This document shows, in pieces, positions 1 through 12,470 of a stretch of DNA of 12,470 nucleotides. This stretch comes from a virus (Duplodnaviria; Heunggongvirae; Uroviricota; Caudoviricetes). The notes beneath the pieces are model-generated. The model saw only the letters and a program-made list of their open reading frames with translations, made no database searches and was not told the DNA's origin. The DNA is taken from the IMG/VR virus record IMGVR_UViG_2671180556_000003. One strand, given 5' to 3'. Made by a program: the position numbers and the translations under genes. Numbering within the stretch: the stretch's first letter is position 1; each line of letters opens with the position of its first letter.

Positions 1-96
1 CAAAGCAGTGGGCCTGAGGTTTGCTTGTGAACCCAACGCATGAGCAGATGGCTGGTGGGTGCCCCTAACACCCACCAACCGCCCATTTACCACAAA

Positions 97-121
97 TAAA
101 AAAGCCTTCACTGCGGAAGGC
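97..121 (-). terminator. Rho-independent terminator downstream of the small wHTH gene
   Basis: Seen in sequence: hairpin GCCTTC(104-109)/GAAGGC(116-121) with a 6-nt loop, followed on the minus strand by a T-run (plus-strand A-run 97-103). The stop codon of the 108..305 gene lies inside the stem. Confidence 0.5.
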
Positions 122-305
122 GTCTGTAACAACCGAACTGATAGTCTGCCAGACCCGCCATAACCAGCTGGGTCAGTATTAACTGGCAGCGTTCGCGTGA
201 AAGGTAAGTATTCTGCGCAATCTCCCCGACTGTCGCCGGTTCGGTGACGCTCAATTCATTAAACACCACTCTGGCGGTTTCGGTCATATCTTGCTGTTTT
301 AGCAT
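108..305 (-). CDS. Small hypothetical protein, possible winged-helix DNA-binding fold
   Basis: ORF 108..329 in the supplied track. ATG at 305 is preceded by AAGGGA (about 7 nt spacing), whereas ATG at 329 has no SD, so 305 is the preferred start (65 aa). The segment TVGEIAQNTYLSRERCQLILTQLVMAGL looks HTH-like. Function not recognised. Confidence 0.5.
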   Translation of the reverse strand: MLKQQDMTETARVVFNELSVTEPATVGEIAQNTYLSRERCQLILTQLVMAGLADYQFGCYRRLPQ

Positions 306-425
306 GTCTTTTTCCCTTCTGGTTAACATGACATACCAATAACTCTTGTCTAAAAAGCCAGCAAGATAAAAAGTCAGTATTCACGACCACCAGCGTGTTT
401 ACTGTACTGCACCAAGTTTACAGGT

Positions 426-452
426 ACAAAAAACCCGCTCAGTGGCGGGTTT
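426..452 (-). terminator. Rho-independent terminator downstream of the AT-rich orphan gene
   Basis: Seen in sequence: stem AAAACCCGC(429-438)/GCGGGTTT(445-452) with loop TCAGTG; on the minus strand the hairpin is followed by TTTTTTGT (plus 426-433). Lies about 125 nt past the stop of the 582..1199 CDS. Confidence 0.6.
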
Positions 453-581
453 AAGTTGTGTGGCGAAGTAACCACTCTTAACACACTAATAGCATTTTTG
501 TTATAACACAAGTAGCTCATTCAGTATTTTTAGAATCTTGACTTTCTTAAGCACGGCGAACTCTGAATACCAAACATAAAA

Positions 582-1199
582 TCAATTATCTTCCAGGCCG
601 GATGCTATCAACGAAAGCCTCTCAAAAAACGCTGTAGCAGCCTTGTCCAAAGTTGAATAAGTACTGTATTCTCCGTGTTCGGGACCAACCACTACCCATG
701 GTCGTCTTTTTGGGATTCGGGACTTCTCAGAAATCACTGTTCCAGATATACCAATATCAATTGTTACACCTGTTATTATTTTCTCTTCATCTCTTTCCCT
801 GAACTCAATTGCCATAAATGCCGTTTTTTTTCGTTTCCCGTTTTTAAAAAAATCAAATAAAGCAAAGCGATGCTCATTAAAATCAACACCCCATCGTCCT
901 TCAGGATAAAGGGCATGAAAGTTGTCATTTACGCTCTGCATCGTCTCATAAGCTTTAACTTCTAAATCTCCATAGTGCATAGATACCGCGCAGGAGTCAC
1001 TGGGTAACTGTATTTTCCCAAGATTGAAAACCTTTACTGCTCCAGAACTATGGCATCTTGCCCGCAATTTATCCCCATTTATACTAATCGGAGAAATATT
1101 CCTTAATGTTCCGGGCTGGCTCCCTCCTAAGTAAACGACTGTTAAAGATTGCTTATTTTCAATTGCATCAACTAATACATGCTCTACATTTTTATCCAT
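582..1199 (-). CDS. Hypothetical protein, AT-rich orphan (moron-like) gene downstream of Q; function unknown
   Basis: ORF 582..1226 in the track. ATG at 1199 is preceded by GGAGGT at 5-6 nt, while ATG at 1226 has no SD, giving 205 aa (MDKNVEHVLVDAIENK...). The region is visibly AT-rich compared with the flanking Q and nin genes. No signal peptide or TM segment is obvious, and I recognise no family. Confidence 0.65.
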   Translation of the reverse strand: MDKNVEHVLVDAIENKQSLTVVYLGGSQPGTLRNISPISINGDKLRARCHSSGAVKVFNLGKIQLPSDSCAVSMHYGDLEVKAYETMQSVNDNFHALYPEGRWGVDFNEHRFALFDFFKNGKRKKTAFMAIEFRERDEEKIITGVTIDIGISGTVISEKSRIPKRRPWVVVGPEHGEYSTYSTLDKAATAFFERLSLIASGLEDN

Positions 1200-1200
1200 A

Positions 1201-1237
1201 ATAACCTCCCAATGAACAGGTATCATCAGGAGGTTAT
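1201..1237 (-). promoter_or_regulatory. Inverted repeat predicted to sequester the SD of the 582..1199 gene in an mRNA hairpin
   Basis: Seen in sequence: plus 1201-1209 ATAACCTCC and plus 1229-1237 GGAGGTTAT are perfect 9-bp reverse complements separated by 19 nt. On the mRNA (minus strand) the upstream arm AUAACCUCC pairs with the SD-containing arm GGAGGUUAU that sits immediately 5' of the AUG. Confidence 0.4.
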
Positions 1238-1274
1238 AATAAAATATGATTATTTACTTTGATTGAATTTATTA

Positions 1275-1646
1275 CTATATGTAACAATCAATTTCTAAAG
1301 ATACCCCCAACATTGCCAGACAACCGTCAATAAACCCTTCAGCTTTCTGCAGTCTGATAACAACCTGATTAAGTGATATCCCCAGTTTTACCCCCAACAC
1401 CCGTAATGTAACCCCATACACATAATACATTTCCAGTAATTCGTATTGATACGGTTCCTTTTTCTTAAGAACTGTCATCGCAGAGCTAATGATCAGGCCA
1501 TCGTCATCGCTACATTGCGGGCGGGATTTTACTTTCGAAGGAATTAATCCCTTAAAACCTGCAGCAACAGATGACCATTCCACATCCTCGTGATTATTTG
1601 CCACCCATGCCCCCCAACGTTCAAGAACCATTTGAATATCACGCAT
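1275..1646 (-). CDS. Q: Late-gene antitermination protein Q (QuuD/Q82-type family)
   Basis: ORF 1275..1661 in the track; position 1661 is a TTG codon. ATG at 1646 is preceded by GGAG at 7 nt. N-terminus MRDIQMVLERWGAWVANNHEDV... closely matches my recollection of E. coli DLP12 QuuD (MRDIQMVLERWGAW...). It sits at the 3' end of the nin region, as expected. Confidence 0.85.
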   Translation of the reverse strand: MRDIQMVLERWGAWVANNHEDVEWSSVAAGFKGLIPSKVKSRPQCSDDDGLIISSAMTVLKKKEPYQYELLEMYYVYGVTLRVLGVKLGISLNQVVIRLQKAEGFIDGCLAMLGVSLEIDCYI

Positions 1647-1663
1647 CAACTTTCTCCACAAAA

Positions 1664-2659
1664 TCAGGCCAGCACGCCTATTGCCAGCGCACGATCGATA
1701 AAACGAAATATCAGCTCCAGCTGGGAGCCATACTTCTCTTCAAATGCCACGGTATCCGCATGCAGCTCGTCGTGATGCTTTCTGCACAAAGGCAGCACGA
1801 AGAGGTCATGCGCTTTTGTACCCATTCCCCCCTGACCGTGGCCTATCAGGTGGTGGGGATCATCAGCAGGCTTTCCACAACATGCACACGGCTGCGTCTT
1901 AACCCAGCGCGTGTACTTTTCGTTAACCCAGCGGCGACGTTTTGGGCGTAACATAAAAGACTCCGGCGACTCCGGATCCACTTTCAGCGCCAGCACCTTT
2001 TTCGCTTTATTCTGGATGATGCTGGTGGCCGGAACCGAAGGCACAAGGTCACTCTCCCGGGTGACAGACGGCACAACAGGCTTCGGTAATCTCAGTGCCT
2101 TACGGGCTGCACTTTCCGGTAAGGCATCCGCCAGATCATTACGAACCAGCCACCAGCACAGTTCCGGCATTGTCACAACGTGACTGTCATCAAAACCGAG
2201 ATCCCGACGCACAACAGACAACACCCAGCGGGCACAGTTATCCGTTGCCATTGATTCCAGCCGTTCCGTGAACTGATCGCGCAGCTGGTTATCGCAGTGC
2301 CAGCACAGACGGATTGCGCCCGGCGCGTGTCGCATTGTGGTCATGTTCTCGCTGTGCCAGTCGGAATGAGGCCACTGGCAACCTTTTTCACGAAGTAACC
2401 AGCTTTCAAGACATTCCACGCCACCAGCACGACGGATCACTGCCTCATTGCGGAACACGACCCGAACGGCAGGATCATCCGCCAGCGGTTGTGATGCTGC
2501 CGGAACGGCACCACTGGCAAAAGATGAATAACGTTCCGGCTCAGGCTCCAGCAGGACACGCCCCTGCATAAACAGGGGCATCAGCTCTGAACCGGGTCTG
2601 AACAATACGATCCCCATACGCGGGGCAATTTCAGGGGTCAGTAGTGCTCTCACGGTCAC
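1664..2659 (-). CDS. NinG/DUF968-like protein (YdfU-like) with a Cys/His HNH-type zinc motif; putative recombination nuclease
   Basis: 331-aa ORF. GTG start at 2659 lies 1 nt after the upstream stop. C-terminal PCACCG...HHLIGHGQGG...LPLCRKHHDELH resembles the lambda NinG pattern (PCISCG...HKQCVVCNQHK). Position immediately upstream of Q matches ydfU-quuQ style gene order. The family call is from memory and not verified. Confidence 0.65.
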   Translation of the reverse strand: MTVRALLTPEIAPRMGIVLFRPGSELMPLFMQGRVLLEPEPERYSSFASGAVPAASQPLADDPAVRVVFRNEAVIRRAGGVECLESWLLREKGCQWPHSDWHSENMTTMRHAPGAIRLCWHCDNQLRDQFTERLESMATDNCARWVLSVVRRDLGFDDSHVVTMPELCWWLVRNDLADALPESAARKALRLPKPVVPSVTRESDLVPSVPATSIIQNKAKKVLALKVDPESPESFMLRPKRRRWVNEKYTRWVKTQPCACCGKPADDPHHLIGHGQGGMGTKAHDLFVLPLCRKHHDELHADTVAFEEKYGSQLELIFRFIDRALAIGVLA

Positions 2660-2660
2660 C

Positions 2661-3476
2661 TCAATGAACGGTATCGAGCAGCTTTAACAGCTCAGGGAAT
2701 CGGGATTCGAAGAAATGCGGCTGCGTCTCGCGCGGATTTGCGGGACTGGTGATGTTCTTGCCGAACATGCAACCTTTCGCTGTCAGCGACCAGAATTTTT
2801 TGATGTTGTTAATCGCGGTACGGCTGTATCGTTCGCGTTGTTCAACGATCCCCAGCTTCGCCATCTGGTGATATGCCTGATTAGCCGTCAGGCGGATACC
2901 ATACTGCTTCAGCAGTGCACTCAGCGACAGCGTAGGGCGGCTTGAACCATCTGGCGCATCAGCAGGTGCATCAATGGCATAGATCGGCATAAGTTCAGGA
3001 AGACCAGCTACCTTTGATAATTTCTGGTATGCACCAAGTTTCGAGGAGTTTGACAGATTTAGAGTCTTTGCTGCTGATTCAAGCAGAATGACCCCGGATT
3101 TAATTTTGTCGGATGTGGTTTCTTCTGGTGATGAATTATGAAGCGCATCAAAAGTACGTATCACTTTTAAGCTGAATGCCGGGCTGATCCACATTGCATA
3201 TGCATAGACCAGCTCTTTACAGACATACGTCCCACCATTGCGCCCCTGAATGGTGATGACAGGAATACTACGGGAATCTCCCGTAGTTTCTTCTTCCAAT
3301 AATTCCACAAGAGCCTTCGTTTCAGGACGACGCATAAACTCGTGAACTTCCAGCGAACGGGAGGAGCGATTCTCACCAGCGGCAAGAAGAGCAGCTTTCT
3401 GAAGGTCGTTAAGACAGTAGTTAGATTCGAAGTACTGGCGCACAGAAACGCCATCAATTACAAGCAACTGATTCAT
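2661..3476 (-). CDS. KilA-N domain protein with antirepressor-type C-terminal domain (Bro/Ant-like)
   Basis: ORF 2661..3488 in the track; 3488 is GTG. ATG at 3476 is preceded by GGAG at 6 nt. The motif GRNGGTYVCKELVYAYAMWISPAFSLKVIRTFDAL is a typical KilA-N core. The C-terminal region (LSALLKQYGIRLTANQAYHQMAKLGIVE...) resembles phage antirepressor C-terminal domains. Confidence 0.8.
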   Translation of the reverse strand: MNQLLVIDGVSVRQYFESNYCLNDLQKAALLAAGENRSSRSLEVHEFMRRPETKALVELLEEETTGDSRSIPVITIQGRNGGTYVCKELVYAYAMWISPAFSLKVIRTFDALHNSSPEETTSDKIKSGVILLESAAKTLNLSNSSKLGAYQKLSKVAGLPELMPIYAIDAPADAPDGSSRPTLSLSALLKQYGIRLTANQAYHQMAKLGIVEQRERYSRTAINNIKKFWSLTAKGCMFGKNITSPANPRETQPHFFESRFPELLKLLDTVH

Positions 3477-3573
3477 TGGTTTCTCCACAAATTTTTATCC
3501 ACGAGCGGGACTGCACTCCCTTTTCGTTGATGCAGGATGAACTTACTGCGATTTTTAATAGTTATCAAGGATA

Positions 3574-3593
3574 CACTGTTCATAAATACAGTA
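3574..3593. promoter_or_regulatory. LexA (SOS) box upstream of the KilA-N antirepressor-like gene
   Basis: Seen in sequence: cACTGTTCATAAATACAGTa, i.e. CTGT-N8-ACAG with an AT-rich centre, matching the consensus TACTGT(AT)4ACAGTA. It lies about 100 bp upstream of the 3476 start. A candidate promoter on the minus strand, TTGATA-N17-TAAGTT, sits just downstream of it. Confidence 0.6.
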
Positions 3594-3638
3594 TCTTTAA
3601 CGAGGTAATACCCAAATTTAGGGTGTTGCTCAATTCCG

Positions 3639-4034
3639 TTACCGAGTTGCTAATTTGCAACTCGCTTTTTCGTACTTACTGATAGTGATCTCGACCTTCC
3701 CCTCCGGGATAACCGGTCCCCACTCCACCAGCATTCTTTTCACCTGTCTGTCGTCTTCCCACACACCCGCGTGGGTCAGGGCGTCAAACAGCGCCTTGTT
3801 ATAGTTGTCCAGATCGCGGATCCGGTTATCCGGAGGAAACAACACGATCTCCACTGAAGCAGGTGCCGACGTTGGTTTCGGCAGACGACGTAACTGCTCA
3901 ACTATTGCTGCACACGCCGCGCTCTGGAATTTTCGCCCCGCCGCGCTTATCAGGCTCTTACCAGCAAACGCCCCTTTGTTGGGGTGTCGCCAGTACGTGT
4001 TCACGCTGGGCGGAAAAGGCAGTATTAGCTTCAT
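3639..4034 (-). CDS. rusA: Holliday junction resolvase RusA
   Basis: 131 aa. ILPFPPSVNTYWRH and IRDLDNYNKALFDALTHAGVWEDDRQV match the RusA family (E. coli RusA: LPWPPSNNRYYRH...RRDLDNLQKAAFDALTKAG). ATG at 4034 overlaps the upstream stop (ATGA). Confidence 0.85.
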   Translation of the reverse strand: MKLILPFPPSVNTYWRHPNKGAFAGKSLISAAGRKFQSAACAAIVEQLRRLPKPTSAPASVEIVLFPPDNRIRDLDNYNKALFDALTHAGVWEDDRQVKRMLVEWGPVIPEGKVEITISKYEKASCKLATR

Positions 4035-4357
4035 ACTTTCAGGCCCCTCTCATGTAACCAGTGGGCTGCACGCAGCCTGGCGTTTGCCTCACCGGCAAGC
4101 AGGGCGCGGATAATCCCGACCGCCTCGCTGTCGTCGTCCTTCACCGCGGTATGAAGAGTGATACCCCGGGCCACGCCACGCTTTATCGTGATGACACCTT
4201 TTTTCTCCAGTGCGCGAAGATGCTCCACCGCTGCATTCACCGAACGGTATCCCAGCATGGTTGCCACCTCCTGATTGGTTGGCGGGAAGCCACGTTCTTT
4301 CTGATAAGAAATCAGCATATCCAGCACCTGCTGCTGGCATTGAGTTAATGTCGTCAT
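4031..4357 (-). CDS. LexA N-terminal DNA-binding-domain homolog lacking the S24 peptidase domain
   Basis: 108 aa. MTTLTQCQQQVLDMLISYQKERGFPPTNQEVATMLGYRSVNAAVEHLRALEKKGVITIKRGVARGITL aligns residue-for-residue with E. coli LexA 1-70 ([68 protein letters not shown]). The protein ends about 40 aa later with no Ser/Lys peptidase domain. GGAG SD at 8 nt; ATGA overlap with the Dam stop. Confidence 0.8.
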   Translation of the reverse strand: MTTLTQCQQQVLDMLISYQKERGFPPTNQEVATMLGYRSVNAAVEHLRALEKKGVITIKRGVARGITLHTAVKDDDSEAVGIIRALLAGEANARLRAAHWLHERGLKV

Positions 4358-5007
4358 GCCGCCATCTCCCTGACCAGTTTTTCCGCCTGCTGGCGAACCT
4401 GCGCCAGAAACGCCTCACCACATGCCTCAAGTTCATCGCGCCCGATGTAGCTGATTGCCGCTCCCTTCCAGGTCTTGTCGAAAACAGCAATAGCACCAGC
4501 GAAGAAAGCACCTGTTGGCACCTGCTTTTCGTCTTTCGGGATAAACCAGGCTGGCAGTTCAAAACCAATACGCCCGCGAATAAAAGCAATATGATCTGCA
4601 TCTTCCGGCCACCACACTTCGCTGGTGGCCGCTTTGATCAGGAAAACATAGCGCCCGCCCTTATCACGCATGGCACTGGCATGTTTCATGATGTAACGCA
4701 TGCCGGTGATGTATTGCCCCTCATGCTGACTGGCGCGGCTGTATGGGGGATTACCAAAGGCAGCACCTTTAAGCTCCGCAAGACGTTCTGACCAGTCATG
4801 CGCCAGCGCGTTGTCTTCCGCCGTGTAATACGCGGCACATTTGGCGTTATCACCGTCAGTGAACAGATCCAGAACAAACGGACCAAACAAGGTGTTAATT
4901 CCCCAGAAAATGTTGTCCGGCGTGCGCCACTGATCGCCCACTTCCTTCAGTTCATGGGCTGGTTTGTTCCGCAGTTCTACCAGCGCCTGGCAATATTTAT
5001 TACTCAT
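4354..5007 (-). CDS. Phage-type DNA N6-adenine methyltransferase (orphan, Dam family)
   Basis: ORF 4354..5052 in the track; 5052 is GTG with no SD. ATG at 5007 follows a GGGGG stretch. Motifs WRTPDNIF, DLFTDGDNAKCAAYYT and NPPYS (the N6-adenine MTase catalytic motif IV) are present. No restriction endonuclease partner is visible in the window. Confidence 0.8.
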   Translation of the reverse strand: MSNKYCQALVELRNKPAHELKEVGDQWRTPDNIFWGINTLFGPFVLDLFTDGDNAKCAAYYTAEDNALAHDWSERLAELKGAAFGNPPYSRASQHEGQYITGMRYIMKHASAMRDKGGRYVFLIKAATSEVWWPEDADHIAFIRGRIGFELPAWFIPKDEKQVPTGAFFAGAIAVFDKTWKGAAISYIGRDELEACGEAFLAQVRQQAEKLVREMAA

Positions 5008-5101
5008 TAAGCCCCCACGTAAAAAGCATCCGCAATGTCTCCGGAAGTACACCCCGGATGGGCTTCAATGAATTTCTGAACTTCATTCAAAAGACTCATG
5101 A

Positions 5102-6109
5102 TCACCCCCTGAATCCTTCCGGGATCTGGCTGTAGTCCACGTTGTCGTAACTGGCTTTGAAGTACGGGTCCTCGCGTCTGGCTGCAGATACCGCAGGAAC
5201 TTCCCAGGATTCTTCGAAATGACGATCCGGACCAAAGAACGTCGACGCCTGCTTCACGAACTGGGTACCGGTATTTCCAGAGACACGCACCCAGGCGGCA
5301 TAGCGTTTCACACCGTCGAGCATGGTTTCGGGTGTCACACCTTCCCTGATTCGGGCTTTCCAGGCTTTAAAAGCGGCGGATTTTGAATTACCACCAGCAC
5401 GTTTGGGATATTCCTGCCAGGCCTGTTCAAATTCCGGTGAATATTCCTGTCTGGCAGAACGCGCTGGTGCAGACGCGTCAGCGGATGCGCCAATAGTGTT
5501 TTTAGTCTCCGTTGTAATCTCTGTAGTAATCTCTGTAGTAATCTCTGTAGTAATCTCTGTATTTGTATCAACATTCGGCGTATCCCCTGTTCCGTTATGA
5601 CGTCGGGGGGTGTTCCGTTTTAACGTAATAGCTGTATCGCTGATTGCATTATTGCTGTTACTTTCTGGCGAAACAGAAGAAGGTGTGGTGATGGCCGCAA
5701 TTGCCTGTGGGTTGATCCCGACAAACAAAATATTGCTGCATTTCACCCCATCGAGCATTTCCACCGTGCGTAAATCCAGAGTAATAAACCCTGCATCGCG
5801 CAGACGCTTCAGCGCATCTGCGGTTTCCCTTTTCCCGAAACCAAACTGCTCAGCAAACGCCTGGTAGCTTCTTTGCAGTTTGTCGCCCTGAAAACGCTTG
5901 CGATATCCCAGCAACGCTCCGGTGTGCTCATCCCTGACCTCTGTCGGGCGGTACCAGTAAACGATCTCTGAAAGCAGAGCGATAGCCGTCGCATCCGGAC
6001 GCCCACTGGGTAGTCGAATATATTTCCACCAGGTCGCAGGTGTAACATTGCCGGAAATATTAATTTGACCAATAGCCATAACTTCCGGTGTGGGGGCGTA
6101 ACGGCTCAT
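5102..6109 (-). CDS. Replication initiation protein (O-like replisome organiser) with internal tandem repeats
   Basis: 335 aa. ATG at 6109 with GGAGG at 4 nt. It has a two-domain layout: an N-terminal winged-helix-like domain and a C-terminal domain containing EFEQAWQEYPKRAGGNSKSAAFKAWKARI, which I recall as typical of phage replication initiators. The two are joined by a low-complexity linker encoding (TEIT)x4. Position after the cro/cII-like/Rha genes fits an O-type gene. Confidence 0.65.
   Translation of the reverse strand: MSRYAPTPEVMAIGQINISGNVTPATWWKYIRLPSGRPDATAIALLSEIVYWYRPTEVRDEHTGALLGYRKRFQGDKLQRSYQAFAEQFGFGKRETADALKRLRDAGFITLDLRTVEMLDGVKCSNILFVGINPQAIAAITTPSSVSPESNSNNAISDTAITLKRNTPRRHNGTGDTPNVDTNTEITTEITTEITTEITTETKNTIGASADASAPARSARQEYSPEFEQAWQEYPKRAGGNSKSAAFKAWKARIREGVTPETMLDGVKRYAAWVRVSGNTGTQFVKQASTFFGPDRHFEESWEVPAVSAARREDPYFKASYDNVDYSQIPEGFRG
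5515..5562. repeat. Four perfect tandem copies of a 12-bp unit (GTAATCTCTGTA) inside the replication gene; iteron-like
   Basis: Seen in sequence: units at 5515-5526, 5527-5538, 5539-5550 and 5551-5562 are identical, with degenerate partial copies on both flanks. On the minus strand they encode TEITTEITTEITTEIT in the linker of the 5102..6109 protein. Confidence 0.9.
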
Positions 6110-6405
6110 ACAACCTCCTTCCGCAGCATGAGAATTGTGTAGCCACGCGCAGGTTGTAGTCTGGCTTTTGCATCAATAGTAAGCGTTGCAATTTTTCGGA
6201 TATGAAGATAACCAGCTCTTTCCAGTGCCAGGGTTTCCCTGAATATCGCTTGCTTAGAACAACAGCAGAAATCAGCAAGCACCTGATGATCAATAACTCT
6301 CTCGCCTTCACCGTCTGAAGAACCCGACATCAAAACACGCAACATAATTAGGCGCTGAATCGGGTTATCGAAAGCACATCCGCACACAAACTGAAAACAG
6401 TTCAC
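6106..6405 (-). CDS. Hypothetical small protein, possible wHTH DNA-binding fold
   Basis: 99 aa. GTG start at 6405 preceded by GGGAGG at 6 nt and overlapping the upstream stop (GTGA). Its 3' end overlaps the replication gene start. The segment VIDHQVLADFCCCSKQAIFRETLALERAGYLHIRKI looks HTH-like. Confidence 0.6.
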   Translation of the reverse strand: MNCFQFVCGCAFDNPIQRLIMLRVLMSGSSDGEGERVIDHQVLADFCCCSKQAIFRETLALERAGYLHIRKIATLTIDAKARLQPARGYTILMLRKEVV

Positions 6406-6626
6406 GCCACACCTCCCAGACGCTTAAACATTTTTCCGGAGCAAAAGGCTATAAGCGGCATACTGACGCGGTAATTACGGCCCAGCGGTTCACAAACCAC
6501 CTTCTGACATTCACGGTCAACCAGGCTAACACGTAGAACATGCCCAGCAGGCGTGGTGTACCACTGACCCGGACGAGGACAACGGAAAGTATGATTGGTA
6601 AACCGTTTGAAAATATTCCGGATCAT
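6402..6626 (-). CDS. Hypothetical small protein
   Basis: 74 aa. ATG at 6626 overlaps the Rha ORF stop (ATGA). AAGGGGG SD at about 5 nt. Contains paired Cys residues (RCPRPG...RECQKVVCEP), a possible zinc ribbon. Function unknown. Confidence 0.55.
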   Translation of the reverse strand: MIRNIFKRFTNHTFRCPRPGQWYTTPAGHVLRVSLVDRECQKVVCEPLGRNYRVSMPLIAFCSGKMFKRLGGVA

Positions 6627-7783
6627 TTGCGCCCCCTTACCTCTGAAGGGTTCAGCGACAAATTTATGAGACTGGCCAGCGCCGAAGCATCATTAATATA
6701 GTCATATAAGCTAACAGCCAGCGGAGATTCGGCTTTTGCCAACATAGGATAAAGCTGCTGCAGCCAGACCTGATGAATTGATGAAATGTAGGAACAGAGA
6801 ACGCTGGCGTTATGTGCAACGTCGCTCGGTACAGCGGGCTTTGAAAGCTGTTTCTCCATCTGGTTAAAGGCATTTATGTATGCCTCTTTGAACCGGGCAG
6901 CACGTTTACCCGTGAAACCCATAGCAAGAAACGCAAAACCGTCTCGTGTGATTTGATAGCAAGGGAGCTTGCGTGTACCACCGTTCGGTTGATTTACCGA
7001 AATCGATGTCTCCGCAAAATTGCGGGCACAAAACTCTGGGGAACAATCCAGAGTGCGGATCTTTTTCAGCACATCGTCGTGACGCTTGGAGAAGAAGTTG
7101 GCAACAGCCAAAGAAGTGGTAACGGCCTGGCCGTTGTCAATGGTGATTTCAGGTTGAGTGAGGGCTGGGATCGTAGCCATGATGGCAGCCTCCGTTGACA
7201 GTGAAAAACTTCCACCACCGGAAACGCCAATTTCACTGGTGGTGAACTGGACGGGGTTGGCGTAACCGGCGTCAACGGAGACCGGCGCACCTTTCGGTGC
7301 CCCCGCCCAGCCCACCATAATCTGGATGTGAGCAAATGCGGACGATAAAAAAGACGCTGGCGCGTCATACATCGCCGTTGACAATTTCAGGACGCCAATC
7401 CCGGCACCCGCTTTATAAGGTGCCTGAGCAGTGTAACGTCCCGGAATTGCAGAATCAATATGCTGGTGGTCCTTCACACTCAACAAAATCACGCCTGAAT
7501 TTCCACAAAGGACTAAAGCACTCATGCGGGTAGTCTTTGCGAAGATAGATAACGCGCTGTGTTTCTGGCTCCCAACGAATAACATGGACATAAAGCCCTC
7601 TTCCGTCACGAAACCAGCGGTTAAGTTCCTGCACAACTCGCCCCCCACAGTCAGGTAAAGTTCTCTGTGGTTACTTACAGCCAGGTGATTTGGTAATCTG
7701 CATTCATGCCGTAACAACAGGTGTTCAGCGACGCTGACCACCAGCTGTTGCGACAAACGGTTATTTGCCGTTAAACTATTCAT
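6623..7783 (-). CDS. Rha-family phage regulatory protein (Rha domain in the C-terminal half; alternative internal start at 7180)
   Basis: 386-aa ORF. Residues about 218-300 (TTSLAVANFFSKRHDDVLKKIRTL...KLPCYQITRDGFAFLAMGFTGKRAARFKEAYINAFNQMEKQL) match the Rha domain. ATG at 7783 overlaps the upstream stop (ATGA). An internal ATG at 7180 (MATIPALTQ...) has a GGAGG SD and would give a canonical 185-aa Rha protein. Both other minus frames across 7181-7780 are full of stops, so the extension is either coding in this frame or non-coding. Confidence 0.6.
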   Translation of the reverse strand: MNSLTANNRLSQQLVVSVAEHLLLRHECRLPNHLAVSNHRELYLTVGGELCRNLTAGFVTEEGFMSMLFVGSQKHSALSIFAKTTRMSALVLCGNSGVILLSVKDHQHIDSAIPGRYTAQAPYKAGAGIGVLKLSTAMYDAPASFLSSAFAHIQIMVGWAGAPKGAPVSVDAGYANPVQFTTSEIGVSGGGSFSLSTEAAIMATIPALTQPEITIDNGQAVTTSLAVANFFSKRHDDVLKKIRTLDCSPEFCARNFAETSISVNQPNGGTRKLPCYQITRDGFAFLAMGFTGKRAARFKEAYINAFNQMEKQLSKPAVPSDVAHNASVLCSYISSIHQVWLQQLYPMLAKAESPLAVSLYDYINDASALASLINLSLNPSEVRGRK

Positions 7784-8364
7784 GCGTTAGTTTCTCCACA
7801 ACCAGAAGCAATCGACGCCACGACGCCCGGAGCTGCACACTCGCGGGCGTTACTCTTTTCCGGCGCACAAAAAACACGAAATAACAGTGTTAAATGCTCC
7901 TGCCACTTCGCCATTACTTGGTAGCTGTTCTCTTCGATTTGCTCACGCTCAGCCTGGTCAATAACTCCATCAGCAGTTGCCTTGCGTAAGTACTGGGAAT
8001 GCTTGCCAATCCATTCTATTGACTCCATCAGCCGCTGATTAATGTCACCATTGTCAATGTCATCAATGACCACCAGCGGCACAAACACCCCATTACTACG
8101 ACGGGCTATTGCATCTGTTACATGCCTGGTACCACTGGCATCCTGTAAAACCATGGCCCACTCAAGTGGAAAAATTTGATCCCCACCGCTACGCAGTCTG
8201 TTATGCAATTGATCTTTTGCTGGGGTGATATCATCAGATTTATACAAACCAAGAATTTCTGCTGCTTCCTCATAGCCATGAGGTAAATCAGCAATCGTTC
8301 TTCGTATTGCTGCCACCAGCCATGCTGGTTGTTTATCAACTTTCCATTCAGGTTCTTTACCCAC
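7780..8364 (-). CDS. Putative early regulatory protein in the cII position (possibly YdaT-like)
   Basis: 194 aa. GTG start at 8364 with GAGGA SD at 7 nt, located 27 nt after the cro-like stop. Position immediately downstream of cro is where cII or YdaT-type regulators sit. The family call is tentative and from memory. Confidence 0.55.
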   Translation of the reverse strand: MGKEPEWKVDKQPAWLVAAIRRTIADLPHGYEEAAEILGLYKSDDITPAKDQLHNRLRSGGDQIFPLEWAMVLQDASGTRHVTDAIARRSNGVFVPLVVIDDIDNGDINQRLMESIEWIGKHSQYLRKATADGVIDQAEREQIEENSYQVMAKWQEHLTLLFRVFCAPEKSNARECAAPGVVASIASGCGETNA

Positions 8365-8391: not shown

Positions 8392-8589
8392 TTATGCCGC
8401 AGCACTGTTAGTCTTTTGATATAAAGACACGTCAACTTTCAGTTTCCCGTTAGTAATTTTTTCTAACTGGTACGCTCGGCCTTCAGGAATAATCTCAGGC
8501 CACTCTGAAACAGACGGATGCTTAATACCTAGGGCTTCGGCGATTTTACAAACTCCGCCGAAATAATTAATCACGTCGGATTTCCGCAT
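8392..8589 (-). CDS. cro: Cro-like repressor (Cro/CI-type HTH)
   Basis: 65 aa, divergent from cI across the operator region. YFGGVCKIAEALGIKHPSVSEW is a typical Cro/YdaS-type HTH. GGGAGA SD at about 5 nt. Confidence 0.8.
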   Translation of the reverse strand: MRKSDVINYFGGVCKIAEALGIKHPSVSEWPEIIPEGRAYQLEKITNGKLKVDVSLYQKTNSAAA

Positions 8590-8620
8590 TTCTGTCTCCC
8601 GTTAAATTACGTTAAGCAGA

Positions 8621-8686
8621 AATGTAGGATATCCAACATGCCAATGTCAAGAATCCTACATGGGCATGTGGTAGGATTGCCTACAT
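8621..8686. promoter_or_regulatory. Right operator region: three operator sites overlapping the PR promoter (minus strand) and the cI start
   Basis: Seen in sequence: site 1 ATGTAGGATATCCAACAT (8622-8639), site 2 ATGTCAAGAATCCTACAT (8644-8661), site 3 ATGTGGTAGGATTGCCTACAT (8666-8686). PR on the minus strand has -35 TTGACA (plus 8650..8645) and, after an 18-nt spacer, -10 TACATT (plus 8626..8621). A possible cI promoter on the plus strand is TTAAAT(8602-8607)-N17-TAGGAT(8625-8630). Confidence 0.7.
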
Positions 8687-9338
8687 GATGAACATGAGTG
8701 ATCGTATTCGCCAAAGGCGAAAAGAACTGAACCTGACACAACAAGCACTGGCTGATTTGACTGGTGTGAACCGTGTCACGGTTACTGGATGGGAAAAGGA
8801 CGACTACCAACCAAATGGAGCCAACCTTCAAGCCCTAGCCAACGCACTTAAATGCGATCCTCTGTGGCTTGTTAGCGGAAAAGGCTCGCCTGAACCAAAG
8901 ATAAATCTAAAACCTGAAATATTCGCAGTTAAAAAAGTCCCCCTAATCTCGTGGGTTCAGGCGGGTTCATGGACAATGACGGAGCCTGGTGTCAGGAAAG
9001 AAGATGCTGAAGAGTGGGTTTATACTACCGCCCTTGTATCAGAAATGGCATTTGCACTACGGGTCCGTGGTGATTCAATGACCAATCCCCTCGGCTCACC
9101 ATCGATACCAGAAGGTTCTATCGTTATCGTAGAGCCAGATATTATTGATACAGAGTGTATTAACGGAAAAATCGTTGTTGCCCATATCAATGGTGGGCAA
9201 GAAGCGACACTCAAAAAATTTGTTGAGGACTGGCCGAACAGGTATCTCGTCCCACTAAATCCTAACTATAAAACTATTGAATGCGGTGAGAACTGCAGAA
9301 TAGTTGGTCTTGTCAAACAAGTAATAATGGATTTTTGA
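8685..9338 (+). CDS. cI: CI-type prophage repressor (N-terminal XRE HTH, C-terminal S24 LexA-like autopeptidase)
   Basis: 217 aa. N-terminal HTH LTQQALADLTGVNRVTVTGWE, then a C-terminal S24 domain with the catalytic Ser in RVRGDSM and a Lys in ATLKKF. Three in-frame ATGs at 8685, 8688 and 8694 make the exact start uncertain, and the first lies inside operator site 3. Confidence 0.9.
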   Translation: MMNMSDRIRQRRKELNLTQQALADLTGVNRVTVTGWEKDDYQPNGANLQALANALKCDPLWLVSGKGSPEPKINLKPEIFAVKKVPLISWVQAGSWTMTEPGVRKEDAEEWVYTTALVSEMAFALRVRGDSMTNPLGSPSIPEGSIVIVEPDIIDTECINGKIVVAHINGGQEATLKKFVEDWPNRYLVPLNPNYKTIECGENCRIVGLVKQVIMDF

Positions 9339-9356
9339 CACATCTTCCTCACTATC

Positions 9357-9386
9357 GCAAAACCGGGGTATCCCCGGTTTTTTTAT
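9357..9386 (+). terminator. Rho-independent terminator downstream of cI
   Basis: Seen in sequence: AAAACCGGGG(9359-9368) / loop TAT / CCCCGGTTTT with a T-run to 9386. Perfect 8-bp GC-rich stem plus A/T extension, 18 nt after the cI stop. The A-run on the other side makes it potentially bidirectional. Confidence 0.75.
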
Positions 9387-9400
9387 GAGCCTATCTTTTT

Positions 9401-9454
9401 ATGTAGGATAACCAACATAAACTCTTGACACTCGCATGTTGGATATCCTACATT
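9401..9454 (+). promoter_or_regulatory. Left operator region and PL promoter
   Basis: Seen in sequence: operator ATGTAGGATAACCAACAT (9401-9418) and inverted copy ATGTTGGATATCCTACAT (9436-9453). -35 TTGACA (9425-9430), 18-nt spacer, -10 TACATT (9449-9454). Same architecture as PR. Confidence 0.7.
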
Positions 9455-9612
9455 TGTTTTTAGAGTTGTGGTGAATGCGCAGGCTGATGCGCGAAAGACA
9501 TTGCAGCTATTGCGGAAAAGAGCTGTTCGGCGGGGCAATTAAACGCCCGTGAGAGTCTGAAATAACCGCAAGCCGGAGATCAGCATCGGTCACCACAGCA
9601 GCCACTGCTTTG

Positions 9613-9659
9613 GCGGTACCAGTTTGTACACTTGCTTCCGGCTGGTACCGCTCTTTTTA
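9613..9659 (+). terminator. Terminator-like hairpin in the PL leader (possible tL or attenuator)
   Basis: Seen in sequence: GCGGTACCAG (9613-9622) and CTGGTACCGC (9642-9651) are a perfect 10-bp inverted repeat with a 19-nt loop, followed by TCTTTTTAC. CGCTCTTTTTACAA also resembles a boxA-like element (rrn boxA is TGCTCTTTAACAA). Confidence 0.45.
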
Positions 9660-9661
9660 CA

Positions 9662-9744
9662 AAACAGAGAAGAGCATCACCGGACGACGGGCTCATAACC
9701 CAATCCACCCGGGCGGCTGCCACCGCAGGTGTTCTTCTCTGTTT
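9662..9744 (+). promoter_or_regulatory. Long inverted repeat or structured RNA element in the PL leader, upstream of the first gene
   Basis: Seen in sequence: AAACAGAGAAGA (9662-9673) and TCTTCTCTGTTT (9733-9744) are perfect 12-bp reverse complements, extendable to about 17 bp with G-U pairs, enclosing a GC-rich loop of about 49 nt that contains CCCGGG. Confidence 0.4.
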
Positions 9745-9781
9745 TGTGGAGAAACTAATATCTTGTGCAGAGGAAAATAGA

Positions 9782-10699
9782 ATGAAATTACCAAAATTTC
9801 GTAACGCAATTGTGTACCGAGCAACATTACCTAGTATACAGGCTATTGAAGGTCATCTTCTCGAACTCCCTTATTCTGAAATCGGGGAAACAGAATTTTC
9901 ACGGTCCTCTTTTGTAGAGAATCCTGTCACTGGTGAACTGGTAACTCCGATATCTGGTGGGTACGCAATGGTAATCCGTCATGATCAGAAAATAATTCCC
10001 CGACATGTCGTCATGAAAGAAGCTAATTCTCGAATCCAAACAATCGAAAATATGTCCGGGAATAAATTAAAGCGTGCCGAACGACTGGCCATTATTGATA
10101 ACGTACGAGTAGATCTATGCAAACAGGCATTTGTTAAGTCTACGCTGATTCTTGCATTGTACAGCACTGATGAGAAATTATTGGTAATCAACACAACCAA
10201 TAAAATAATAGCCGGTATGGTATGCGCAATGCTGATTAAGGTTGTCGGTTCAGTGAAAACAGAAACAATCAACATCAGTGATATCAAGAATGGACTGACT
10301 ACACGCCTGAATAACTACATCAATGGTGCAGCCAATGCATTTGAAGGATTCACTGTCGGAAATTATATTCAGCTATCACGCTACGCAGATCAAAAGGAAA
10401 TTATTCGCTACTCAGCTGAGCATGAGTCAATTCAAAGCGAACTGGCCGATAGTCTTAGTAGTAGTTTCACTGCTGATAAAATGGAGTTATCCGGTTGCGG
10501 TGTGACCTTCATTCTTACCGAAAATTTCCATTTTTCGCGCATCAATACTCAATCTCAGACATTTAATGATGAAGATGATAAAGCATTCCAGTGGCGTCAT
10601 CAGACTGGCGCTGACCTTTTCCAATTCAGCAAGGTAGTTAATTTGATGTGTGACCTTCTTTCTTACAAAGAAGATAAAAGCCAAAATCCAACAACTTAA
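9782..10699 (+). CDS. RdgC-like recombination-associated protein
   Basis: ORF 9632..10699 in the track; the ATG at 9782 follows GAGGAAAA. 305 aa, similar in length to E. coli RdgC (303 aa). N-terminus MKLPKFRNAIVYRATLP vs RdgC MLWFKNLMVYRLSR; QKIIPRHVVMKEANSRIQTIENMSGNKLKRAERLAIIDNVRVDLCKQAF vs RdgC [49 protein letters not shown]. Alignment is from memory. Confidence 0.7.
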   Translation: MKLPKFRNAIVYRATLPSIQAIEGHLLELPYSEIGETEFSRSSFVENPVTGELVTPISGGYAMVIRHDQKIIPRHVVMKEANSRIQTIENMSGNKLKRAERLAIIDNVRVDLCKQAFVKSTLILALYSTDEKLLVINTTNKIIAGMVCAMLIKVVGSVKTETINISDIKNGLTTRLNNYINGAANAFEGFTVGNYIQLSRYADQKEIIRYSAEHESIQSELADSLSSSFTADKMELSGCGVTFILTENFHFSRINTQSQTFNDEDDKAFQWRHQTGADLFQFSKVVNLMCDLLSYKEDKSQNPTT

Positions 10700-10704
10700 A
10701 AAAA

Positions 10705-10746
10705 TTGCAGCAATCATCCCATGTCAAATGGGCTGGATTGCTGCAA
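10705..10746 (+). promoter_or_regulatory. Perfect 11-bp inverted repeat (nested hairpin) between the RdgC-like and HD-domain genes
   Basis: Seen in sequence: TTGCAGCAATC (10705-10715) and GATTGCTGCAA (10736-10746), with a 20-nt loop that itself contains CCCAT(10718-10722)/ATGGG(10728-10732). Preceded by AAAAAA and followed by TCAAAATT. Confidence 0.4.
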
Positions 10747-10789
10747 TCAAAATTCAGAGCGGTGCAGCGCATATAACGTGGAGAACAAA

Positions 10790-11326
10790 ATGTCATTTAT
10801 TAAAACTTTTTCCGGGAAGCATTTTTATTATGACAAGATAAATAAAGACGACATCGTGATTAACGATATCGCGGTTTCCCTTTCAAATATCTGCCGCTTT
10901 GCCGGTCATCTTTCTCACTTCTACAGTGTCGCCCAACATGCGGTGCTTTGCAGCCAGCTGGTGCCGCAGGAATTTGCTTTTGAAGCGTTAATGCATGATG
11001 CAACAGAAGCGTATTGCCAGGATATTCCCGCTCCACTGAAACGCCTTCTTCCTGACTATAAACGGATGGAAGAAAAAATAGACGCCGTAATCCGTGAGAA
11101 ATACGGGTTACCCCCGGTTATGAGCACGCCTGTGAAATATGCCGATCTCATCATGCTGGCAACCGAACGCCGCGATCTCGGGCTTGATGATGGCTCTTTC
11201 TGGCCAGTACTGGAAGGTATCCCGGCAACAGAAATGTTCAAAGTTATTCCACTGGCTCCGAGCCATGCCTACGGGATGTTTATGGAGCGCTTTAACGAGT
11301 TATCGGAGTTACGCACATGCGCATGA
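10790..11326 (+). CDS. HD-domain phosphohydrolase (YfbR-like 5'-deoxynucleotidase family)
   Basis: ORF 10721..11326 in the track; the ATG at 10790 is preceded by GGAG at 7 nt, giving 178 aa. HD motifs: ICRFAGHLSHFYSVAQHAV and EALMHDATEAYCQDIPAPLK (compare YfbR SVAEHS...ALLHDASEVLTGDLPTPVK). Confidence 0.75.
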   Translation: MSFIKTFSGKHFYYDKINKDDIVINDIAVSLSNICRFAGHLSHFYSVAQHAVLCSQLVPQEFAFEALMHDATEAYCQDIPAPLKRLLPDYKRMEEKIDAVIREKYGLPPVMSTPVKYADLIMLATERRDLGLDDGSFWPVLEGIPATEMFKVIPLAPSHAYGMFMERFNELSELRTCA

Positions 11327-11928
11327 ATGTTTTCGAAATGGAAGGGTTTCTTCGCGGGAAATGTGTACCACGAGATCTGAAAGTGAATGAAACAAATGCT
11401 GAATATCTGGTGCGTAAATTTGCTGAAGCGGAGGCCAAGATTTTGGCTCTGTCCGAAGACCAACAGAAAGCGATTGAGTCAATTAAGCAGGCTGATGCAG
11501 CTGTTAAGTTGGCACACGAGAAGTTTTCGGCGCTGGCGGCGGAGAATGCGGGGCTGAAACACGCAATGGCCGTAACTCTTGAGCATGTGTCGGTCACGGA
11601 TGCAGGGCAGGCTGGTGTTGCTGCAATGATTATCAACGATGCCCTACACCACAGCGAAACTCCAGCCACCGATGCTTTCCTGGCTGAAATTCGTGCGGAA
11701 GCACGCAACGAGGGGATTAACTATACCGCAAGCCGTCTTGCTGCTACTTTCAATCACGGATTTATCAATAAGTCTTTACGTGAAGTTTTCGACGTTACAC
11801 GCATGATTCTGTCAGCGAAAGAAGAGTTGGCTAATGAACCACACCCGATTGATGGCCTGTCCGGTGAATATGCGGAGAAATCCCTAGAAGAATGGGCGGA
11901 ACAGATTCGCAAAGGAGGCAACCAGTGA
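11317..11928 (+). CDS. Hypothetical protein (predicted coiled-coil N-terminal region)
   Basis: 203 aa. ATG at 11317 preceded by GGAG at 8 nt; start overlaps the HD gene stop (ATGCGCATGA). No family recognised. Confidence 0.65.
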   Translation: MRMNVFEMEGFLRGKCVPRDLKVNETNAEYLVRKFAEAEAKILALSEDQQKAIESIKQADAAVKLAHEKFSALAAENAGLKHAMAVTLEHVSVTDAGQAGVAAMIINDALHHSETPATDAFLAEIRAEARNEGINYTASRLAATFNHGFINKSLREVFDVTRMILSAKEELANEPHPIDGLSGEYAEKSLEEWAEQIRKGGNQ

Positions 11929-12149
11929 GCGGAAAAAGAATGACTAACAGAGAGCTTGTTGATGCCGCGATTAAGCTTGCTGGTGATTTTTATTCAATGA
12001 TGGGGTACGCGCATCGCCCTGGATTCAAATATTGGGAATCACCGCATCCGCAAGAGCAACTGGTATTTCAAATGGCCTGCCGTGCTTTTGAGGTTATTCG
12101 CGGTTCTGATGTGATGGACGCCGTTGCCGACTTGGAGGATGAAGAGTGA
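11925..12149 (+). CDS. Hypothetical small protein
   Basis: ORF 11892..12149 in the track. GTG at 11925 is preceded by AGGAGG at 6 nt and overlaps the upstream stop (GTGA). Alternative ATG at 11940. 74 aa from the GTG. No family recognised. Confidence 0.5.
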   Translation: MSGKRMTNRELVDAAIKLAGDFYSMMGYAHRPGFKYWESPHPQEQLVFQMACRAFEVIRGSDVMDAVADLEDEE

Positions 12150-12470
12150 CCCAAATTAACTATCAGGCACTGCGTGAAAAGGCAGAGAAAGCAACTAAAG
12201 GAAGCTACATCGTAGGGCATACATCTGTTAACCAGCACGGCAATTTAACAGGAGTTTTTGTTTGCCAAAAATGGAAAGGAGAACCCGGTGGCGTGATTGC
12301 GGAATGTCATGTTAACTGCCTGATTGAATCAGATGTGAACCGCCCCGGGTTTCCTGGAGAGTATTTTATCTGTGAACTCAGGCTGCCAGATCATCGTTTC
12401 CGATGGAAGCATAATAAGCTTTTTCTGCTTCTGCCGGAGGAGTATGGCCCAGCCTTTCCAGCAATCGTCG
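12146..12470 (+). CDS. Hypothetical protein, 5' partial within the window (runs off the right edge)
   Basis: Not in the supplied track because it has no stop in the window. GTG at 12146 is preceded by GGAGG at 7 nt and overlaps the upstream stop (GTGA). Manual translation gives VTQINYQALREKAEKATKGSYIVGHTSVNQHGNLTGVFVCQKW... with at least 108 codons open. Confidence 0.5.
   Translation, partial: MTQINYQALREKAEKATKGSYIVGHTSVNQHGNLTGVFVCQKWKGEPGGVIAECHVNCLIESDVNRPGFPGEYFICELRLPDHRFRWKHNKLFLLLPEEYGPAFPAIV

Follow-up and report, generated by a model that had tools for sequence, protein, structure and literature searches.

Organization of the early-left region

The 12,470-nt stretch of DNA analyzed here (IMG/VR record IMGVR_UViG_2671180556_000003, hereafter "the window") comprises the immunity and early region of an Escherichia coli lambdoid prophage of the SfV/mEp460/cdtI/CPS-53 type, and our subject is the start of its early-left operon, in which the leftward promoter PL is followed by a leader, an rdgC gene, the HD-domain gene yfdR and a series of accessory open reading frames (ORFs; Table 1). 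"Leftward" transcription here runs along the + strand of the window. E. coli chromosomes (99.2-99.8% identity over 83-92% of the query) and phage Lys8385Vzw come nearest to it among public sequences. The joint presence of rdgC and yfdR is not new, as matching E. coli genomes already carry the RefSeq names "rdgC" and "yfdR", and a 2025 description of lambdoid phages without a Rec module includes YfdR clusters and occasional RdgC genes adjoining cI (PMC12315714); the locus is an ordinary one for this class. New here are the placement of rdgC under PL, the exchangeable slot that it occupies, and a conserved yet undescribed leader RNA with its terminator.

Concerning the placement, an intrinsic terminator, two left operators (OL) and PL separate cI from rdgC, and because of these rdgC is assigned to the PL operon, as its predicted first gene, and not to the cI transcript. 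The operator palindrome ATGTAGGATAWCCWACAT recurs in the right operator region (OR): once at 8622-8639, in a weaker form at 8671-8687 (82% identical) and, from a reading of the sequence by eye, in a third and again weaker copy at ~8644-8661. The promoter regions mirror each other: positions 8613-8652 (rightward promoter, PR) and 9423-9462 (PL) are 40-nt inverted copies with 88% identity, each presenting TTGACA-18-TACATT overlapping an operator. The PL transcript would start at ~9461, leaving ~320 nt of leader before the rdgC ATG, and a sigma-70 scan between the leader terminator and rdgC detected no second promoter. A Klebsiella phage of another immunity specificity, ST101-KPC2phi6.3, has its elements in the same order (cI, terminator, operator repeats with promoter, long-stem leader, RdgC). 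For RdgC genes adjoining cI a possible co-transcription with cI had been suggested (PMC12315714), from which the present placement differs. A sequence-only reading of the window had named the rdgC and HD-domain genes as the first of the PL operon, and the cI terminator, operators and promoter bear this out, with the qualification that the long leader, including an intrinsic terminator of its own, comes ahead of rdgC.

Table 1. Features of the immunity and early-left region of the window (aa, amino acids; z, z-score; IS, insertion sequence)
Feature	Position	Strand	Details
CII/YmfL-like gene	7780-8364	-	
P22-type Cro	8392-8589	-	
cI-type repressor	8685-9338	+	Helix-turn-helix (HTH) and S24 self-cleaving domain; Pfam Peptidase_S24 3.7e-25, HTH_3 1.1e-15
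Intrinsic terminator of cI transcript	9359-9381	+	10-bp GC-rich stem, then U run; -15.2 kcal/mol, z = -3.2
OL operators	9401-9418, 9436-9453		18-bp palindrome ATGTAGGATAWCCWACAT
PL promoter	9425-9454	+	TTGACA at 9425, 18-nt spacer, TACATT ending 9454
PL-proximal leader, mosaic non-coding stretch	9461-9611	+	No N gene; only short ORFs in three frames
Leader intrinsic terminator	9612-9658	+	13-bp stem, then UCUUUUU; -21.2 kcal/mol, z = -4.1
Conserved structured leader RNA	9654-9755	+	~100 nt; -47.7 kcal/mol, z = -6.8
Exchanged cassette	9756-10749	+	blastn breakpoints 9755/9756 and 10749/10750 versus Lys8385Vzw
RdgC-family protein, phage-type lineage	9782-10699	+	305 aa
YfdR, HD-domain phosphohydrolase	10790-11326	+	178 aa
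Mosaic accessory ORF (ORF203)	11317-11928	+	203 aa; "Eae protein" in Lys8385Vzw annotation
ORF of unknown function	11925-12149	+	74 aa; GTGA overlap with ORF203; 100% identical to Lys8385Vzw gp36; phrog_4132
Ead/Ea22-like protein, interrupted	12146-12334	+	N-terminal 63 codons; GTGA overlap with 74-aa ORF
IS3-family (IS1203/IS629-like) element end	12335-12470		Inserted in Ead/Ea22-like gene; runs to window end

A divergent RdgC-family protein

The first gene of the cassette had been read as an RdgC homolog, an assignment confirmed at the level of profile, family and predicted fold. The protein matches the Pfam RdgC profile (PF04381, E-value 5.4e-31, 108.4 bits for a cut-off of 25) with residues 6-280 on profile positions 3-278, as well as phrog_724 ("exonuclease recombination-associated", E-value 4e-77), and reaches an E-value of 2e-9 against E. 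coli RdgC (2OWL) with phmmer. Its AlphaFold model (predicted local distance difference test, pLDDT, 88.3) displays the three-domain RdgC fold and aligns full length with 2OWL_A in Foldseek (template-modelling (TM) score 0.82, E-value 5.8e-20, 18% identity). E. coli RdgC dimerizes into a ring that clamps DNA and prevents strand exchange by RecA; a basic fingertip serves to load it onto DNA, and F120 closes the gate (PMC2965237). The E. coli protein is also reported to lower RecA-dependent LexA cleavage. The E. coli fingertip and gate residues R97, K98, K100, K101 and F120 align with N94, K95, K97, R98 and F117 of the window protein, i.e., both a basic fingertip and a gate phenylalanine are present, and the motif KLKK..ER is the consensus in 34 homologues. 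The ratio of non-synonymous to synonymous substitutions (dN/dS) is 0.04 when the gene is compared to an 86%-identical homologue, which corresponds to strong purifying selection. Overall, we consider the 305-aa ORF to encode a divergent, full-length and, as judged from sequence and predicted structure, bona fide RdgC-family protein, for which a modulation of RecA would be a reasonable inference from the family.

Homologues of RdgC occur in 185 phage records, P1/P7 HrdC among them (phrog_724), and none of the sequenced phage records had a product above 67% protein identity to that of the window. Of 5426 complete E. coli genomes, 24 carry the window rdgC segment itself. Some distant phage-type homologues (P0110, P0111, P0115, P0118 and P0120; ~37-39% identity, 372-385 aa) carry an extra FtsK-gamma DNA-binding domain (PF09397).

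An exchangeable slot between leader and yfdR

When compared to Lys8385Vzw, segment 9756-10749 stands in for a segment encoding YfdP and YfdQ, the flanks being 99.5-99.7% identical, and the breakpoints fall one base past the leader element on one side and 40 nt short of the yfdR start on the other. To place this exchange in a broader context, we tallied what follows the core of the leader element across 115 loci (IMG/VR contigs, the window and reference loci). The most frequent content was YfdP-YfdQ-YfdR (70 loci), followed by RdgC (18), YfdP with or without YfdQ and no match to YfdR (14, some of these loci being too short), YfdR directly after the leader (10), and other contents (3). Of 102 loci, 97 had a cI-like gene upstream on the same strand, with a median separation of 854 nt.

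The 18 slot RdgCs are of two kinds: eight are window-type, 20-23% identical to K-12 RdgC, and the remaining ten are full-length proteins at 58-68% identity, i.e., host-type. In these latter loci (IMG/VR contigs L015, L031, L036, L040, L043, L066, L069, L080, L083 and L116) the gene likewise sits between the leader element and yfdR. RdgC is thus one content of an exchangeable slot, for which YfdP plus YfdQ, a host-type RdgC, or nothing are the alternatives, and two unrelated RdgC lineages appear to have been recruited to it independently. This double recruitment speaks for canonical RdgC activity as the trait under selection in the slot. A separate search for phage-type RdgC yielded 80 viral contigs; a same-strand cI-like gene lay upstream in 73 of 76 contigs, and YfdR came after RdgC in all 27 contigs of the two closest clades.

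YfdR and the accessory ORFs downstream

The second gene of the operon is identified, on the strength of its similarity, as YfdR: it shares 97.8% identity with the K-12 protein over all 178 residues and 100% with Lys8385Vzw gp38, and it matches phrog_318 at 1.7e-109; the Pfam YfbR-like profile scores 24.0 bits, just under its gathering score of 25.9. Its start lies at 10790 and not at the ATG at 10721, the 178-aa form being common to K-12, mEp460 and Lys8385Vzw, and the cassette border 10749/10750 falls inside the longer ORF that starts at 10721. With this corrected start, the HD-domain assignment of the sequence-only reading holds, and a check of the catalytic residues retrieved them all (H50, H69-D70, E73 and D119, aligned with the HD structure 2GZ4). 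The reshaping of nucleotide pools proposed alongside it is not the best-supported role, since K-12 YfdR binds DnaA, through Phe46 of DnaA domain I, and has a nucleotide affinity far below that of YfbR (PMC4776307). The K-12 protein also moderately inhibits the binding of DiaA and DnaB, and extra copies of yfdQ and yfdR together with yfdS or yfdT inhibit initiation at oriC, with YfdQ required (PMC4776307).

Downstream of yfdR (junction ATGCGCATGA), at least three proteins had been read as unknown and joined by GTGA/ATGA overlaps. The overlaps are present, and two of the three ORFs proved to resemble common lambdoid ea-type families. ORF203 is Eae-like: it matches phrog_14548 and phrog_614 (~1e-90) and, with its N-terminus, phrog_583, and its first ~61 aa resemble the N-terminus of YfdS (66% identity to YfdS residues 1-68), while no Pfam match and no match among PDB sequences was found. 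The 74-aa ORF has no Pfam match. The third is Ead/Ea22-like; the 63 codons left are 100% identical to residues 1-63 of Lys8385Vzw gp35, and the full-length gp35 relative belongs to Pfam Ead_Ea22 (PF13935, 2.3e-34). Homology to relatives ends at 12335, and 12335-12470 matches IS3-family/IS1203 transposase loci in thousands of E. coli records.

Leader terminator and structured leader RNA

The leader begins with a mosaic stretch, whose place is filled by unlike sequence in a relative (L001, E. coli strain CAU16175). A search for an N-like gene yielded only short ORFs; SfV orf33 and YeP2 gp48 had no tblastn match, and a ClpX-type zinc-finger protein gave only a weak match of 11 residues to the leader (tblastn E-value 0.22). 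Within this stretch, 136 nt (9465-9600) are 97% identical to a stretch of the 115-kb phage RCS47, itself an rdgC carrier, where the counterpart is annotated under "putative lipoprotein Plp", and also 97% identical to a stretch of Salmonella phage IME207. In ST64B, Kp4866-6 and many IMG/VR contigs, the terminator that follows differs in the letters of its stem with complementarity kept and a T run always next, a pattern of conservation across phages by structure and not by sequence.

The leader RNA consists of a closing stem of 20-24 bp, an invariant hairpin (GGG/CCC stem, CUCAUAA loop) and a second inner arm, which varies in length like the variable arms of structured RNAs. Across 27 distinct sequences, 95.5% of the cells are standard pairs, compared to 38-48% in a control in which the 3' partners were slid by 1-3 columns. 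Eight pairs are altered on both sides (at one of them, 15 sequences have GC and 12 have CG), and U-G pairs, including one in 24 of the 27 sequences, favor the + strand, i.e., the PL transcript. A covariance model built from the 27 sequences detected a single copy in the window, and diverged ones ahead of RdgC in Yersinia phage YeP2 (27.8 bits) and the Klebsiella phage (18.8 bits). The 27-nt core has an exact match in at least 120 IMG/VR contigs, a set in which its invariance holds by construction, as the core was the search query.

The core holds CGGGCUCAUAACCC, which corresponds to 14 nt of the E. coli initiator-tRNA (metZ) anticodon stem-loop (16 of 17 with the flank), spanning the CUCAUAA loop and three G-C pairs, and the predicted fold gives the corresponding hairpin. 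None of 2000 shuffles reached 14 nt, for a likeness that was noticed after the fact and with one tRNA compared. This tRNA-fMet-like hairpin is not a tRNA gene, as ARAGORN finds none in the window. An Rfam search of the leader, with gathering scores and with a lax E-value, returned no family, and the literature searched yielded nothing relevant on such a leader RNA or on a mimic of initiator tRNA in lambdoid phages.

An identity with the put RNA of HK022 was considered and rejected: the covariance model recognizes none of the HK022 put sites, nor does it find another copy downstream of PR, and local alignments to the HK022 putL and putR regions, placed approximately by promoter position, did not exceed shuffles. 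The leader RNA is accordingly not a put RNA by membership, and its function may nonetheless be comparable. In phage lambda, the N leader carries an RNase III/processing site. As candidate roles, the element could be such a site, serve as an operator of translation, or act as a decoy or sensor of factors recognizing tRNA-fMet. In lambdoid phages lacking N, it may account for the control of early-left expression.

Recombination genes and Chi sites

The sequence-only reading had the RdgC and HD genes stand "instead of" an exo/bet/gam-type set. The absence of such a set is not visible inside the window, where the operon is cut by the IS element and the window end, and the claim stands through relatives whose shared segments are near-identical (99-100%). 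In these the operon goes on with Ead/Ea22, a hypothetical protein, DUF551, a Rv2179c-like 3'-5' exonuclease and a PrtN-type excisionase, an integrase following in L003 and in the more distant mEp460; no annealing protein, Exo, or Gam/Abc2 was found either in the window or in the complete operons of relatives L001, L003 and L005. The 12.5-kb window includes 12 Chi sites (GCTGGTGG) for 0.4 expected, all within 51-8320, eight of them on the - strand and none in the PL operon. These features match the described "no Rec module, high Chi" (LLS-type) class, lacking a Red/Erf-type module and rich in Chi, which makes up 22% of a 314-phage panel and for which a reliance on host RecBCD-promoted recombination has been proposed (PMC12315714).

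Other features of the window

The early-right operon encodes, between a methyltransferase and RusA, a 108-aa protein (4031-4357, - strand) that consists of a LexA-like N-terminal DNA-binding domain only ("LexA family" in RefSeq). Further along, matches to the C4 antisense RNA (7235-7322, - strand, 81 bits, E-value 4e-15) and to isrK (7347-7423, - strand, 62 bits, E-value 1e-11) both lie within a mechanically listed 386-aa ORF (6623-7783), which is for this reason probably an artefact upstream of a Rha/antirepressor gene. The locus looks like a P1 immI/Gifsy-1 IsrK-type module.

Proposed role of the cassette and alternative readings

Phages without a Rec module account for about a fifth of the enterobacterial lambdoid ones (PMC12315714). 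For the window, we favor, at a probability of roughly 60%, a reading in which the PL operon starts with RdgC and YfdR as an accessory DNA-transaction or host-takeover cassette, and not with a recombinase set. The cassette would stay off in the lysogen and be switched on from PL once the repressor is lost or upon infection, with the leader terminator setting or attenuating its level of expression. By analogy with the E. coli protein, RdgC would probably form a ring dimer clamping duplex DNA and probably keep RecA in check, in its loading, filament activity or strand exchange, on the DNA of phage or host. YfdR, by analogy with its K-12 counterpart, would probably bind DnaA domain I and, with partner proteins, hold down the initiation of host replication. 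Recombination would fall to host RecBCD/RecA, with the Chi sites as their points of action. A PL-borne rdgC, in a slot before a DnaA-binding YfdR, offers a testable handle on how phages manage host RecA and replication initiation.

Several observations weigh against this reading. The phage RdgC is only ~18-23% identical to E. coli RdgC and misses the NCBIfam RdgC equivalog cut-offs (best 91 bits for 227-501), and of the horseshoe network Q212, E218, H222 and K227, aligned with H214, E220, S224 and F229, the interface residues Q212, H222 and K227 are not conserved, in a stretch where the alignment is weak. YfdQ, which is needed with YfdR for the inhibition of initiation in K-12, is absent here, and is unrelated to RdgC both by profile comparison and by fold. 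The Klebsiella-type RdgC clade (65-71% identity) mostly lacks YfdR, which is found in 10 of its 47 contigs. Neither an N gene nor a put-like RNA was found that would explain read-through of the leader terminator. Lastly, antagonism of RecA sits badly with the dependence on RecBCD/RecA recombination proposed for this phage class (PMC12315714), which together with the 12 Chi sites makes a plain RecA-inhibitor reading awkward. The action of RdgC may rather be selective, e.g., against RecFOR-type loading (Moore et al., 2003), or transient.

The shared slot lends itself to another reading, in which RdgC and YfdP plus YfdQ are interchangeable partners of YfdR in a single replication-control unit, with RdgC as the DNA-binding component in place of YfdQ. 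The position between the same leader and yfdR, the constant neighborhood of YfdR and RdgC in the two closest clades, the requirement for YfdQ together with YfdR in K-12 (PMC4776307) and the entry of two unrelated RdgC lineages into the slot all fit with it. However, YfdQ and RdgC share no detectable similarity in sequence or fold, the slot is empty in 10 loci, the Klebsiella clade is usually without YfdR, and a common slot may reflect mere recombination at conserved flanks, so that we hold this to be rather unlikely. It is tempting to combine it with the leader and to speculate that interchangeable YfdR partners form a modular replication/recombination cassette under a leader RNA with an initiator-tRNA-mimic hairpin; we regard this joint reading as doubtful, if worth keeping in view.

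The proximity of the gene to cI raises the question of whether RdgC works like lambda RexA, being made in the lysogen with cI and acting in superinfection exclusion or in a lysis-lysogeny bias, as has been suggested (PMC12315714). The gene does lie just beyond cI in 73 of 76 contigs, yet a strong terminator, two operators and PL intervene, both here and in the Klebsiella phage, and the slot is also filled by genes 58-68% identical to host RdgC. In addition, the model matches full-length RdgC (TM score 0.82) with no RexA among the 50 PDB matches listed, and the next gene is YfdR and not a RexB-like partner, all of which makes a RexA-like role distinctly unlikely. Accessory early phage genes often counter host defences, and a counter-defence or nucleotide-pool module, in which YfdR would hydrolyse deoxynucleoside mono- or triphosphates or nucleotides used in signalling, while RdgC would protect DNA against the nucleases of defence systems, could draw on the intact HD catalytic residues. 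We consider it improbable, as the least likely of these readings: K-12 YfdR has a nucleotide affinity far under that of YfbR and DnaA as its only demonstrated partner (PMC4776307), no known anti-defence homology was seen, and nothing was found to support the counter-defence cassette put forward by the sequence-only reading, none of the seven cassette proteins matching PADLOC, which is weak evidence as this library holds defence and not anti-defence proteins. The RexA-like and counter-defence readings are thus less well supported than an accessory DNA-transaction or host-takeover cassette.

Comparison with known systems

Compared to E. coli RdgC, the phage protein retains the full-length fold, a Pfam score well over cut-off, the basic fingertip and the gate phenylalanine, and differs by being carried by a phage downstream of PL, by its low identity (18-23%), by scores below the equivalog cut-offs and by a horseshoe whose residues are not kept. 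P1/P7 HrdC and the other phage homologues of phrog_724 belong to the same family and also reside in phage genomes, although HrdC of P1 is only ~22% identical to the window RdgC and lies in a different genomic setting. Lambda RexA is comparable through the structural homology of its two domains to RdgC and through a gene near cI. However, rexA belongs to the cI transcript, ahead of OL/PL, and its product has the partner RexB, whereas the window gene lies downstream of PL, encodes the full RdgC architecture and is without RexB.

The leader RNA resembles HK022 put RNA in being a cis-acting structured RNA of an early leader in a lambdoid phage without N. It shows no sequence or model similarity to put, which occurs as one copy after PL and one after PR, at the 5' end of the transcript, whereas the leader RNA is a single copy located after a terminator and ~190 nt from the transcript start. 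Moreover, put is formed of two open stem-loops, and the leader RNA of a single closed multi-branch structure.

As a module, the cassette is closest to yfdP-yfdQ-yfdR-yfdS-yfdT of CPS-53 (KpLE1) in K-12, also found in SfV, mEp460, ST64B and LLS. The two share the leader element, YfdR (97.8% identity), an ORF203 with the N-terminus of YfdS and the position in the operon; the window differs by having RdgC for YfdP plus YfdQ, and other ea-type ORFs in exchange for YfdT and the DUF551 part of YfdS. As a phage, the window compares with the LLS-type "no Rec module, high Chi" phages (PMC12315714) by a PL-proximal operon with no N gene as far as the IS element, relatives without Red/Erf/Gam-type genes, a strong Chi enrichment, a YfdR-type cluster and an RdgC adjoining cI. 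The difference lies in how this RdgC is connected to cI: the two were suggested to be co-transcribed in that class, whereas here a terminator and PL stand between them.

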